Positions 19,639 to 23,205 of a stretch of 64,000 bases of DNA are shown in pieces. A program made the translations under genes and the position numbers. The notes under the pieces were generated by a model. That model made no database searches and was not told the origin of the DNA. It worked only from the letters and a program-made list of their open reading frames with translations. How positions within the stretch are numbered: the first letter of the stretch is position 1; every line of letters starts with the position of its first letter. The stretch lies in the sequence record OZ035785.1; one strand, 5' to 3'. The stretch is from Tequatrovirus BCH953P2.

Positions 19639-20109
19639 TTAATCATGTTTCCACACCCCATCGGTATTTGACCAAAGTCGCTGATTATCTGATCCTCGCC
19701 ACAGCTTTTTAGTCGGAAGATTTTTCTCATACTTCCCATCAATAATAACATCAACATATTTAAGCATTTCTAGTTGTTTAATATCTTCAAACTTATATCC
19801 TGTCCACAACCAAATGCTTTTATTGGGATAAAGATTTTTTACTGTTTGAACAATGCAATGAATAACATCCCGGTTATCAGGATAGAGAGGGTCACCTCCG
19901 GTTATAGTCAATCCTTCTATATAATCATTATTCAAACATTCAATTAATTGTTCTAGTGTTTCACCAGTGAATGGAATACCATTTCTAACATTCCATGTTG
20001 ATTTATTATAACACCCTTCGCATTTATGCAAACAACCTGTAACGAAAAGAACGGTCCTGCAGCCAGGGCCATTCACAAAATCACAGGGATAAAATCTATC
20101 GTAATTCAT
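19639..20109 (-). CDS. nrdG: anaerobic ribonucleotide reductase activating protein (radical SAM)
   Basis: 156 aa; cysteine cluster CLHKCEGCYN. Confidence 0.9.
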   Translation of the reverse strand: MNYDRFYPCDFVNGPGCRTVLFVTGCLHKCEGCYNKSTWNVRNGIPFTGETLEQLIECLNNDYIEGLTITGGDPLYPDNRDVIHCIVQTVKNLYPNKSIWLWTGYKFEDIKQLEMLKYVDVIIDGKYEKNLPTKKLWRGSDNQRLWSNTDGVWKHD

Positions 20110-21923
20110 TGATGCTTAACCCTATGCATGATTTCTTTATTTTTACCGAGATTAAATCCGCGTTCGTTCGGGTTTCCAAGATATCCGCATGTTCTTCTTA
20201 TTGTGTTCATCTTTTTAGGATCAGTTTCTCCACAAATAGAACAAACAAATCCGTTTTCAGTAGGAGTCATTTCATGGGTACTTCCGCATGTAAAACATTT
20301 ATCTACTGGCATGTTAACACCAAAATAATCTAAATGTTGTGCAGCATAATCCCATACGGCCTCAAGACCTTTTAAGTTATTTTTCATATCAGGAAGTTCA
20401 ACATAAGAAATGTGACCACCTGTCGCAATGAAATGATACGGCGCTTCACGAGAAATCTTTTCAAACGGAGTAATATTTTCTTCTACTGAAACGTGGAAAC
20501 TGTTAGTGTACCAGCCTTTATCGGTAACATCTTTTACGCTTCCATATTTTTCTGTATCGAGTTTACAGAAGCGATAACAAAGGTTTTCAGCAGGAGTAGA
20601 ATATAAACTAAAAGCAAATCCGGTTCTTTCAGTCCACTGTTTAAGATGAGCATTCATTTTAGTTAAAATTTCTCGTCCAATATCACGACCGACAAGAATA
20701 TTCAATTCGTGAATACCAATGTATCCTAGGGACACTGAACTTCTACCGTTTTTAAATAACTCAATTATGTCGTCATCAGGTTTAAGACGAACCCCGAATG
20801 CACCTTCTTGGTAAAGAATAGGAGCAACAGTAGCTTTAACTCCTTTTAAGGAACTAATTCTACACATCAAAGCTTCAAAACACAAATCCATTCGTTCATT
20901 GAATAATTCAACAAATTTCTGTTCATTGAACTGTGTTCCAATATAAGAATCTAACGCGATGCGAGGAAGATTCAATGTTACAACACCAAGATTATTACGT
21001 CCATCAAGAATTTCATTACCAGTCGAATCTTTCCATACGCTCAAGAAACTACGGCAACCCATTGGAGAAACAGGAACAGATGAACCAGTGATAGCTTTAT
21101 TGTTCTTAGCTGAAATAATATCAGGATACATCCTTTTGCTTGCACACTCTAGAGCAAGCTGCTTAATATCATAGTTCGGATCGTCTTTGTAAAGATTAAC
21201 GCCTTCTTCGACGAACATAACAAGCTTAGGGAAAATAGGAGTTATCCCATCACGACCAAGACCTTTAATACGATTTTTCAGAATTGCTTTCTGAATCATT
21301 CGTTCAGTCCAGTCAGTTCCCGTACCAAATGTAATTGTTACAAAAGGTGTTTGCCCGTTTGAACTAAAGAGAGTATTTACTTCATATTCATAAGCTTGGA
21401 ATGCATCGTATACGTCTTTTTCTGTTTTAGATTGAGCATAATTCAACGCATCAGCGATTTGCCATTTTTCTGCATCTTCAATATGTTTTGCATAGGTGCG
21501 TTTAACATAAGGAGAAAGTACTTTATCTACATTCGCAAAAGTCGTTCCGCCATATTGATGGGAAGCAACCTGTGCAGTAATTTGTGCCATAATTGCAGTA
21601 GCAACACCGATTGATTTAGGAGTTTCAATCTGTGCATTACCGAGCTTAAATCCGTTCTCAAGCATTCCTTTTAAATCTACTAAACAACAATTAGTAAAAG
21701 GCAATGATATACTGTAATCTAAATCATGAAAATGAATTAACCCGGCATTATGAGCATTTACAATATGACTTGGAAGAATACTGCAAGCGATATGTTTAGA
21801 AACAATACCGGCCATTAAATCTCTTTTTGTTGGAAAGACACGAGAATCTTTGTTGGCGTTTTCGGTATTTAATTCTTTATCTTTATTTGAAATAAAATTT
21901 AAAACATCTTTCTCTAAAGACAT
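20106..21923 (-). CDS. nrdD: anaerobic ribonucleoside-triphosphate reductase, uninterrupted
   Basis: 605 aa contiguous ORF with C-terminal glycyl radical and zinc-ribbon region; no intron. Confidence 0.95.
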   Translation of the reverse strand: MSLEKDVLNFISNKDKELNTENANKDSRVFPTKRDLMAGIVSKHIACSILPSHIVNAHNAGLIHFHDLDYSISLPFTNCCLVDLKGMLENGFKLGNAQIETPKSIGVATAIMAQITAQVASHQYGGTTFANVDKVLSPYVKRTYAKHIEDAEKWQIADALNYAQSKTEKDVYDAFQAYEYEVNTLFSSNGQTPFVTITFGTGTDWTERMIQKAILKNRIKGLGRDGITPIFPKLVMFVEEGVNLYKDDPNYDIKQLALECASKRMYPDIISAKNNKAITGSSVPVSPMGCRSFLSVWKDSTGNEILDGRNNLGVVTLNLPRIALDSYIGTQFNEQKFVELFNERMDLCFEALMCRISSLKGVKATVAPILYQEGAFGVRLKPDDDIIELFKNGRSSVSLGYIGIHELNILVGRDIGREILTKMNAHLKQWTERTGFAFSLYSTPAENLCYRFCKLDTEKYGSVKDVTDKGWYTNSFHVSVEENITPFEKISREAPYHFIATGGHISYVELPDMKNNLKGLEAVWDYAAQHLDYFGVNMPVDKCFTCGSTHEMTPTENGFVCSICGETDPKKMNTIRRTCGYLGNPNERGFNLGKNKEIMHRVKHQ

Positions 21924-22735
21924 AATTCTAATTTATCCTTTTGAAATTCTTCGTCTAAATATGGGTTCCAACCCATTTTAAACCTTTTGATGAAATTATC
22001 AATTCTAAATTTCGGTAAGTTTAAATCCGCAAAAATAGATGATTTACTTTTAAAATCTGGACCTAAATAATCATATAAAATTTCTGCGTATTTTAACCAT
22101 AATATATAAGTACCAGATTTAATTGCTCTCGGAGTTTTCCAAGGTTTTACACCATACATCGGATTTCCACTTCCTTTATGCCTGATAGAAGATGAAATTC
22201 CAATTTTAATTTTAGCTTCCTCTGTATGCGAAAATCCATGATGTGGATTTTCTTTCCAATATTTTTTAGAAGCTTCTGATATTTTCTTTCTGGCTAAATT
22301 AGTATGATGCTTTCCATAAAATCCATGATTTTTACCTTTATTACGATTTCTTTTAATCATGGTTATTGATTGCTTTTTTCTAGTTTCTTTAGAAGGAGAA
22401 ACACCGTACGTTGTAAATTGACCATCAGCATATGCTAAATTAAAATACTCTTTATTCCATATATCTTTTTCTATATTCTTTTGAAATTCAGCTTCAATGC
22501 TAGTTATTTGCTCATCTCCGACTAATTGAAAATATAATATTTCAACTTTCGGCGTTTCTTTCAACAGGGCTTTTTGAAATTCGGAAGATGACGAAGACGA
22601 ATAATAAAATTTACCATTTTTATCAATAATATTCGTTCCGTCAAAAGCGCAATTAGTTTTACTTCCAATGTAATAATATGGCGGGGTTTTAGCATTAATT
22701 CTATTAATAAATGATAGTTTATATACTACATTCAT
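21914..22735 (-). CDS. seg-like GIY-YIG homing endonuclease
   Basis: 273 aa; VVYKLSF...YYYIGS GIY-YIG motifs plus NUMOD3-like HGFYGK and GSGNPMYG repeats. Confidence 0.65.
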   Translation of the reverse strand: MNVVYKLSFINRINAKTPPYYYIGSKTNCAFDGTNIIDKNGKFYYSSSSSSEFQKALLKETPKVEILYFQLVGDEQITSIEAEFQKNIEKDIWNKEYFNLAYADGQFTTYGVSPSKETRKKQSITMIKRNRNKGKNHGFYGKHHTNLARKKISEASKKYWKENPHHGFSHTEEAKIKIGISSSIRHKGSGNPMYGVKPWKTPRAIKSGTYILWLKYAEILYDYLGPDFKSKSSIFADLNLPKFRIDNFIKRFKMGWNPYLDEEFQKDKLELCL

Positions 22736-23205
22736 TTTAAACTCTTTCTAAGCTGCTTCTTAAATGAAGCTATTAATTGTGTTTTGGTGTCAGATTCATT
22801 ATATTCAAATCCTCTTTGAAGCATCTCAGCCATCATTTCCTCTTTTCCTAAACGAGAAAATTCCTTTGATTTATCTCCAACGAAGTTAGGGTGAATATTA
22901 TTTTGGGTGTAATCGGATTTTAAATAAGTAAGTAAATTTTCTAACCATTCAAGATAATCAACACCTTGTCCCTTTAAGCCAGAACGATTAAATTTATGCT
23001 TCATTTGACCTTCTGCGGCATTGCAGAGATTACAAAGCAATCCACGTACCTTTCCTGCTTTTGGTCCATTTAATTCATGGTCATGGTCAAGGTGATTAGC
23101 TTGAACGTCAGGATTTAGTTCTCGTTGGCAAATTAAGCATTTACCATTTTGTGCATCATAAAATTTCTGTTTTTCTTCTTTATATAATTTGCCAGTCAAT
23201 AACAT
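22732..23205 (-). CDS. 49: endonuclease VII (Holliday junction resolvase)
   Basis: 157 aa; zinc-binding cysteines and HDH catalytic motif. Confidence 0.9.
   Translation of the reverse strand: MLLTGKLYKEEKQKFYDAQNGKCLICQRELNPDVQANHLDHDHELNGPKAGKVRGLLCNLCNAAEGQMKHKFNRSGLKGQGVDYLEWLENLLTYLKSDYTQNNIHPNFVGDKSKEFSRLGKEEMMAEMLQRGFEYNESDTKTQLIASFKKQLRKSLK

Follow-up and report, generated by a model that had tools for sequence, protein, structure and literature searches.

A putative seg-type homing endonuclease gene linked to a divergent nrdD 5′ end at the gene 49–nrdD junction of Tequatrovirus BCH953P2

The 64,000-nt stretch of Tequatrovirus BCH953P2 DNA analyzed here (the window; record OZ035785.1, with all positions given as window coordinates) carries, between gene 49 and nrdD, an ORF for a 273-aa protein. 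Its interpretation as a free-standing homing endonuclease gene of the seg type, with a capacity for homing or marker exclusion, is well supported by comparative evidence. Probably, the encoded enzyme belongs to the SegG subfamily and its gene moves together with a replacement of the nrdD 5′ end as a mobile unit of 1037 nt, the 5′ part of seg-less nrdD being cut and the intron known from T4 nrdD being irrelevant to the process. The homing reading is based on a patchy distribution, exact junctions, a linked target block, low cassette diversity and the existence of decay derivatives. In a preliminary description of this DNA, the arrangement had been regarded as one expected for homing or marker exclusion next to an intron-less nrdD; the core idea of homing is now backed by comparison with other phages, while its tie to the intron-less state has to be given up. 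According to the ORF list, the genes form a minus-strand run in the order 49, seg, nrdD and nrdG, with pin upstream of gene 49. As all four genes are located on the minus strand, the endonuclease gene is positioned immediately upstream of nrdD and not downstream of it, as initially described, and its start overlaps the stop of gene 49 instead of the nrdD stop (ATGA, within AAA-ATG-A at 22737-22732; seg ATG at 22735-22733). The seg stop codon (TAG, 21916-21914) lies 7 nt inside nrdD, the ATG of which is found at 21923-21921. In line with the initial description, nrdD is one uninterrupted ORF for 605 aa, and the endonuclease ORF is intact, located between nrdD and gene 49 and equipped with NUMOD3 repeats, whereas the GIY-YIG label also assigned to it is not returned by Pfam. 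In T4 and T2, gene 49 directly abuts nrdD, and T4 possesses mobC between nrdD and nrdG as well as a group I intron with I-TevII inside nrdD. Compared to T4, the window is thus devoid of intron and mobC but shows an additional gene between 49 and nrdD. Otherwise, gp49 of the window is 100% identical to T4 gp49 at the amino acid level and NrdD residues 76-605 are identical to T4 NrdD at 530/530 positions. A megablast search with the locus matched 978 records, with Tequatrovirus coliphages at a best identity of 97.5%.

For delimiting the cassette, nrdD of five seg-bearing loci (the window, PTE-Eco15, G8, one IMG/VR contig and Pu-Krd-SF5) was aligned with nine seg-less alleles (T4, T2 and seven IMG/VR loci). 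In nt 1-225 of nrdD, the seg-bearing alleles differ from all nine seg-less ones at 81-85 of 225 positions (36-38%), while from nt 226 on the difference is only 3-5%. Correspondingly, amino acid identity is 45-47/75 in codons 1-75 and 98-100% downstream, and both dS and dN fall sharply at the same point, from saturation (2.6-5) to 0.12-0.19 and from 0.34 to 0.002-0.004, respectively (cross-pair rows involving L003 or L006 are left out of the dN/dS comparisons). The switch between the alleles at nt 225/226 is abrupt, directly before the invariant codons F76-T-N-C79-C-L, and the identical right boundary is present in the Mosigvirus phage OLB35. Cys79 within this motif is the conserved Cys of the NrdD reductive half-reaction (PMC4493059). 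The left junction is likewise exact, as seg-bearing and seg-less genomes agree in the last part of gene 49 up to the ATGA. The 225-nt allele was found at an identity of at least 95% in 49 phage records and in none at 90-95%, the next best matches showing 76% at most. Together, seg and the replacement block make up a unit of 1037 nt, which 48 records contain in full and without interruption, at identities of 96.7-99.6%. Altogether, the locus was retrieved from 701 records, about 600 of which bear the T4-type allele and 48 the complete seg cassette; seg is full length in 48 of 50 copies. Hence, homologues in related phages, the absence of which would have spoken against the initial description, are plentiful. 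A donor lineage for the 225-nt block was not found in the phage collection, the best outside matches being Klebsiella phages at no more than 76% identity, and a metagenome scan with the Seg alignment yielded one near-identical locus only. Equating the divergent region with exon 1 of T4 was discarded, as divergence is confined to nrdD nt 1-225. The seg-linked block explains a local nrdD stretch of 37% divergence which would otherwise be confusing for phylogenies of therapeutic T4-like phages.

The cassette has a history of its own. Among seven seg-bearing genomes, the mean pairwise difference is 1.9% in the cassette (maximum 3.3%), in contrast to 7.0% in gene 49, 5.3% in nrdD nt 226-538, 5.1% in nrdD nt 539-1818 and 5.0% in nrdG. 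Moreover, the nrdD 3′ part of the window differs by 2.2% from seg-less T2, but by 6.6% from seg-bearing Pu-Krd-SF5. Isolation hosts of the carriers are Escherichia, Shigella, Yersinia and Salmonella. Several Tequatrovirus species are represented among these phages, and the cassette is also found in Mosigvirus backbones, in FL18 and OLB35, albeit there in the form of derivatives. The dN/dS values of seg, between 0.05 and 0.33 and based on small counts, show purifying selection. Patchy occurrence between conserved genes of close relatives, precise junctions, a co-inherited flank (nrdD nt 1-225) and a history independent of the backbone, all of them characteristics of homing endonuclease genes, are thus combined at this locus.

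In a mixed infection, the enzyme is proposed to cleave seg-less nrdD in its 5′ region, most likely around codons 50-75 and near nt 165. The break would be resected and repaired from the seg-bearing genome, with the end of gene 49 serving as left homology arm and nrdD from the FTNCC motif (Cys79) onwards as right arm. Such a repair would copy seg and the replacement block together, and the block would remove the target, by which the carrier becomes immune. A tentative placement of the cleavage site can be derived from L053, a metagenomic (Logan) contig of a distant T4-like phage with a gp49 of 64% identity and a seg homologue at the same locus that is 55-66% identical and frameshifted. Here, gp49 is followed by a 55-codon fragment of native nrdD, seg and a full nrdD, codons 1-57 of which are cassette-like while the native sequence resumes at about nt 166-172 (87% identity to the seg-less Morganella phage Rgz1). 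In other words, a segment consisting of seg and the donor nrdD 5′ end is inserted cleanly at nt 165 of the native nrdD, the junction between 49 and the nrdD fragment being left intact. The simplest reading of this order would be break and repair at nt 165, which places the putative homing site around codons 50-60. The target would then have been destroyed by interruption in the L053 lineage and by replacement in the window. Besides, codons 71-73 are altered in both seg-linked alleles, from native SPA to SIS in the window and to GTT in L053, a pattern which, speculatively, fits a bipartite site like that of I-TevI.

An alternative location of the target is the junction of 49 and nrdD itself, interrupted by the insertion, with the 225-nt block being just a passenger from the original donor lineage. 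This would be in agreement with a left junction exactly at the ATGA common to gene 49 and nrdD and with inheritance of the block en bloc, and a dN of 0.34 together with saturated dS is what a foreign segment, and not a set of selected immunity changes, would show. On the other hand, the L053 insertion is located at nrdD nt 165 while the junction is preserved, OLB35 retains the block after seg loss, and characterized Seg enzymes usually cut within the neighboring gene, at a distance from where they are inserted (PMC2988022). A junction target is therefore considered rather unlikely, and cleavage inside the nrdD 5′ part is preferred. Going one step further, Seg might enter a coding sequence without intron or intein near nrdD codon 55, the gene being kept functional by the incoming 5′ end and start signals, with L053 representing the primary product with its displaced native fragment and the Tequatrovirus form a later state from which the remnant has been lost. 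This extension is tentative and somewhat doubtful. If true, nrdD would have four independent sites for homing elements, i.e., for the Cys79 intein of Morganella phage MP1, the intron with I-TevII at Y180, the occupant of the mobC/SegH slot and seg, and seg would recognize a bipartite site extending over roughly nt 160-225, beside the active-site Cys79 codons.

Three further loci show peculiarities in nrdD. On the Logan contigs L060 (3960-4124) and L062 (639-872), T4-type nrdD is frameshifted by a 1-nt deletion at about nt 150 and by a 10-nt deletion between ATGAAAGC direct repeats (nt 163-172), respectively, the latter coinciding with the point of insertion in L053. As both contigs came from a search with the 75-aa NrdD N-terminus that returned only short truncated ORFs, this retrieval bias makes the frameshifts anecdotal and not a test for a hotspot. 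In phage MP1 (L036 6468-9245, an IMG/VR copy), NrdD is encoded by a single ORF for 925 aa including an intein with LAGLIDADG-like motifs between N78 and C79 (FTN/CFSRN...VVTGN/CCLVDL), 9 nt from where the block ends in the window. Hence, the Cys79 motif itself is a homing site for a different mobile element.

From its sequence, the 273-aa protein can be deduced to be a SegG paralogue with a divergent GIY-YIG domain, NUMOD3 linker repeats and a putative C-terminal DNA-binding domain. It matches the PHROGs family phrog_7504, annotated as homing endonuclease (E = 5.8e-34), and its residues 1-126 show 40% identity to T4 SegG (BLASTP E = 5e-27 over 128 columns; tblastn E = 3e-17). Across 16 SegG-like proteins including T4 SegG, 13 columns are invariant (Y5, R12, P19, Y22, G24, S25, K26, Y44, S47, E81, F98, N99 and A103), and all of them are kept in the window protein. 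Assignment of the N-terminal domain to the GIY-YIG type is suggested by this homology together with motif and fold comparison. The strand corresponding to GIY in I-TevI is represented by VVY (aa 3-5), including the invariant Y5, and the YIG strand by YYYIGSK (aa 20-26), with invariant Y22 and G24 and YYIGS aligning with YVGS of I-TevI. The metal-binding Glu and the structural Asn correspond to E81 (I-TevI E75) and N99 (I-TevI N90, here within YFNL). A profile comparison with canonical GIY-YIG domains by hhalign brought the motifs into register (P = 0.001; the I-TevI sequence used is approximate). The AF2 model is confident for aa 1-100 only, with a pLDDT of about 90 for the catalytic domain and low confidence for the C-terminal domain, and in a Foldseek search against PDB its sole match with TM > 0.5 was the catalytic domain of I-TevI (1LN0, TM 0.54-0.56, E = 6-8). 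Among BFVD structures, SegG/gp32.1 proteins were matched at E values between 1e-14 and 1e-8, while those for proteins with GIY-YIG or group I intron endonuclease in their names were 1e-4 to 1e-2, the matches to GIY-YIG-named proteins (6e-4 to 1e-2) being possibly aided by the NUMOD3 region. The NUMOD3 match in Pfam (E = 1.1e-8, aa 130-153) comprises three stretches, and it is through this region that the SegG-like family profile finds its only PDB match, the DNA-binding domain of I-TevI (1I3J, E = 1e-4). The C-terminal third (aa 171-266) shows 36% identity to a gp59/gp32-slot gene of Gaprivervirus TH55, and in the alignment of SegG-like proteins the C-terminal domain aligns with P0004. GenBank pipelines label the ORF as homing endonuclease and once as SegG, while in searchable open-access text no relevant description of an endonuclease in the gap between 49 and nrdD, or of one named segI, segJ or segK, was found. 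Overall, the protein is an uncharacterized and fairly ordinary addition to the T4 seg endonuclease family. A further relative with a length of 273 aa is encoded on ENA contig NODE_202 (L051 4001-4822), flanked by gp5 and a 5.1-like gene and not far from the 5.1/5.3 slot occupied by segC in T4. It combines a SegG-type catalytic domain, with 55% identity over the N-terminal half, with another C-terminal half and is thus an instance of domain shuffling between Seg loci.

Several points weigh against an active homing endonuclease with a linked immunity block. Pfam GIY-YIG models (PF01541 and PF19835) do not match the protein even at E ≤ 10, a phmmer search of the 273-aa protein against PDB gave no match, and the Foldseek search against PDB gave no significant one for the catalytic domain. 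A counterpart of I-TevI R27 was not found, as I36/I37 occupy the aligned position and no Arg is present between residues 13 and 118. Furthermore, the activity of the enzyme and its target site are deduced from comparisons, L053 is one contig with a frameshifted seg copy and may be an assembly artifact, and cassette differences of up to 3.3% among carriers do not indicate a very recent sweep. Finally, the 225-nt block may just be carried along passively; its divergence is too high for removal by recombination, so that a role as immunity determinant does not have to be assumed. Regarding the missing Arg, however, the whole SegG subfamily including active T4 SegG is also devoid of the canonical residue and shows invariant R12 and K26 instead. 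Its absence is thus a subfamily trait and not evidence of decay. Accordingly, of the catalytic Arg and Glu whose loss was initially thought to disprove an endonuclease function, Glu is retained as E81, along with Asn N99, whereas the canonical Arg is lacking, as in the active T4 enzyme.

The same observations on Pfam, the canonical Arg and the 3.3% difference between copies would also be explained by an inactive or decaying remnant, or by a domesticated DNA-binding protein without nuclease role, inherited vertically, and indeed deleted, truncated and frameshifted derivatives exist. Nevertheless, this is improbable, considering that 48 of 50 copies are full length, that dN/dS ranges from 0.05 to 0.33 and that all residues invariant in the subfamily are kept, as in active T4 SegG. 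Moreover, vertical inheritance does not predict a cassette found in different backbones, with a diversity about 2.7 times below that of the flanks. Together with the intact cassette, the derivatives form a natural series reflecting the life cycle of a homing endonuclease gene, from the intact form via a seg-deleted "immune" form and a nrdD-deleted fusion to the frameshifted copy with displaced remnant. In OLB35 (MH992122, L058 1480-1720), seg has been lost by an in-frame deletion, and NrdD starts with MNVVYKL, i.e., with seg codons 1-7, followed by cassette-type nrdD nt 22-225 and Mosigvirus-like sequence from nt 226 on. This allele is free of the endonuclease and presumably resistant. In FL18 (PP400780, L055 3001-4492), seg breaks off near codon 203 and continues in frame with roughly the final 19 codons of nrdD; next come the gene for a 276-aa endonuclease in the mobC slot and nrdG. 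As the deletion behind this fusion has taken away the seg 3′ end and nearly the whole of nrdD, FL18 is a natural nrdD-less T4-like phage.

Absence of the T4 group I intron from nrdD, as claimed previously, was confirmed by alignment with T4 nrdD, the insertion site (nt 538/539) being empty. In the window, nrdD nt 520-570 are identical to T2 and other intron-less phages, hence representing an ordinary and common empty homing site. However, judging from the genomes compared, seg is unrelated to the intron-less state. The element coexists with an intron encoding intact I-TevII in at least five phages, namely G8, Manna, F26, fPS-2 and Lv5cm (as deduced from record spans, tblastn, annotation and the Rfam group I intron model), and a distance of 313 nt, filled with common-allele sequence, separates the end of the seg-linked block from the downstream intron site. 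The link between endonuclease and intron-less nrdD implied in the preliminary description is thereby not supported. Compared to all intron-less alleles, the intron-bearing ones (T4 and G8) show seven synonymous changes, six in the first 30 nt of exon 2 and the seventh in the last codon of exon 1 (corresponding to window region 21354-21385). This cluster, independent of seg, resembles a trace of co-conversion or self-immunity associated with I-TevII. An endonuclease acting at the intron site, either competing with I-TevII and its intron or mobilizing them by collaborative or trans homing, has a precedent in mobE and the nrdB intron, where a free-standing endonuclease is known to promote trans homing (PMC2790892), and nrdD of the window does possess a T2-type and presumably I-TevII-sensitive site. 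But the coexistence in five phages, the common allele separating block and site and the 7-nt co-conversion signature that intron-bearing alleles show directly 3′ of the site, associated with the intron and not with seg, make such an action extremely unlikely.

The seg ATG occupies the exact sequence context of the nrdD ATG in seg-less T4 and T2. Seg has therefore captured the translation initiation region of nrdD, and nrdD translation now begins within the seg 3′ end. As scans for promoters gave null results, with 22 sigma-70 promoters found versus 18.7 ± 4.7 expected and no exact T4 late-promoter octamer in the locus, a dedicated seg promoter is not claimed. In T4, segC, segF, segG and mobC are all promoter-less (PMC2988022). 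Likewise, the seg gene of the window seems to lack a promoter of its own and to be read, as a cassette of the 49-nrdD-nrdG transcription unit, from promoters further upstream.

Among characterized enzymes, T4 SegG (gp32.1) is the closest comparison, an active free-standing GIY-YIG enzyme encoded between genes 32 and 59 and targeting gene 32 (PMC2988022). Both proteins have a homologous N-terminal catalytic domain with all subfamily-invariant residues in common, and the C-terminal domain of the window protein is of the type found in SegG-slot proteins of other genera. Also shared are the promoter-less cassette, the orientation along with the neighboring genes and the position directly upstream of the presumed target gene. 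In contrast to T4 SegG, the locus of the window gene is 49/nrdD and not 59/32, the presumed target is nrdD and not gene 32, the protein is longer by 63 aa due to NUMOD3 repeats absent from T4 SegG, and the gene carries along a 225-nt replacement of the target gene 5′ end. I-TevII targets the same gene, nrdD, and is, with its NUMOD modules, a member of the same broad superfamily of nucleases, but it is intron-encoded, acts at nt 538, is absent from the window, shows no specific sequence similarity to the 273-aa protein and occurs independently of seg.

T4 SegF reportedly undergoes "intronless homing". In mechanism only, it resembles the present case in being encoded by a free-standing GIY-YIG gene beside a gene with a carrier-specific allele, with localized marker exclusion by double-strand-break repair, but it is a member of a different Seg subfamily and its locus is 56/soc. 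At the other end of nrdD, endonuclease genes occupy a SegH/mobC slot between nrdD and nrdG. Like seg, these are free-standing and flank nrdD in T4-like phages, and the seg-type occupant also combines GIY-YIG and NUMOD3; the slot is empty in the window. A gene for a 276-aa protein of the GIY-YIG/NUMOD3 type, presumably SegH, was found in the nrdD/nrdG gap of Pu-Krd-SF5 (L047 807-1637) and fPS-2 (L048 807-1541) as well as in FL18. Besides NUMOD3, this protein has a DNA-binding domain of the I-TevI type, and it weakly matches GIY-YIG of the SegE type. Its similarity to the 273-aa protein is restricted to NUMOD3 (BLASTP E = 0.002 over the repeat region), and identification of the 273-aa protein as SegH was rejected on these grounds. 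Phage fPS-2 has three endonuclease genes in or around nrdD, namely seg, the intron-encoded I-TevII and the 276-aa slot gene.

The cassette adds to the best-studied homing-endonuclease system an uncharacterized Seg enzyme with a new target, probably located beside an essential motif. It also represents a third slot, free-standing or intronic, at a single non-essential gene, nrdD. As the number of these elements in natural genomes ranges from none to three, they are useful for studying competition between selfish elements. Most useful are the replacement block in its linkage to seg and the decay series, from which a concrete and testable cleavage region is predicted. The features of the locus are compiled in Table 1.

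Table 1. Annotated features of the gene 49–nrdG region in the window (positions in nt; evidence or characteristic residues in the last column).
Feature	Position	Strand	Basis
Gene 49, endonuclease VII, 157 aa	22732..23205	(-)	Pfam Endonuclease_7 + Endonuc-dimeris
seg-like putative free-standing homing endonuclease gene, 273 aa	21914..22735	(-)	ORF; PHROG 7504; SegG homology
Predicted N-terminal catalytic domain, SegG-type divergent GIY-YIG, aa 1-105	22421..22735	(-)	VVY3-5, R12, YIG22-24, K26, Y44, S47, E81, N99
NUMOD3 repeats / linker, aa 130-180	22196..22348	(-)	Pfam NUMOD3 E = 1.1e-8
Putative C-terminal DNA-binding domain, aa 196-273	21917..22150	(-)	Likeness to SegG-slot proteins of other genera
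nrdD, 605 aa, uninterrupted	20106..21923	(-)	Pfam NRDD E = 4.7e-171, Gly_radical
seg-linked replacement block, nrdD nt 1-225 (codons 1-75)	21699..21923	(-)	Divergent allele, linked to seg; presumed immunity determinant
Cassette right boundary, NrdD codons F76-T-N-C79-C-L81	21681..21698	(-)	Allele switch at nt 225/226
Empty T4 intron insertion site and I-TevII homing-site region	21354..21404	(-)	Site 21386/21385, exon junction versus T4 and G8
nrdD stop / nrdG start overlap (ATGA); empty mobC / SegH slot	20106..20109	(-)	ORFs
nrdG, 156 aa	19639..20109	(-)	Pfam Fer4_12 / Radical_SAM

Besides, the 3′ end of gene 49 (22732-22840, the last 55-110 nt or so) is almost invariant, with one or two differences in 54 nt, even where the remaining gene 49 is 20-25% divergent (L015, L016, L019 and L024 6361-6474). 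Possible explanations are a constraint from translation initiation of nrdD or seg, or repeated co-conversion from this locus.

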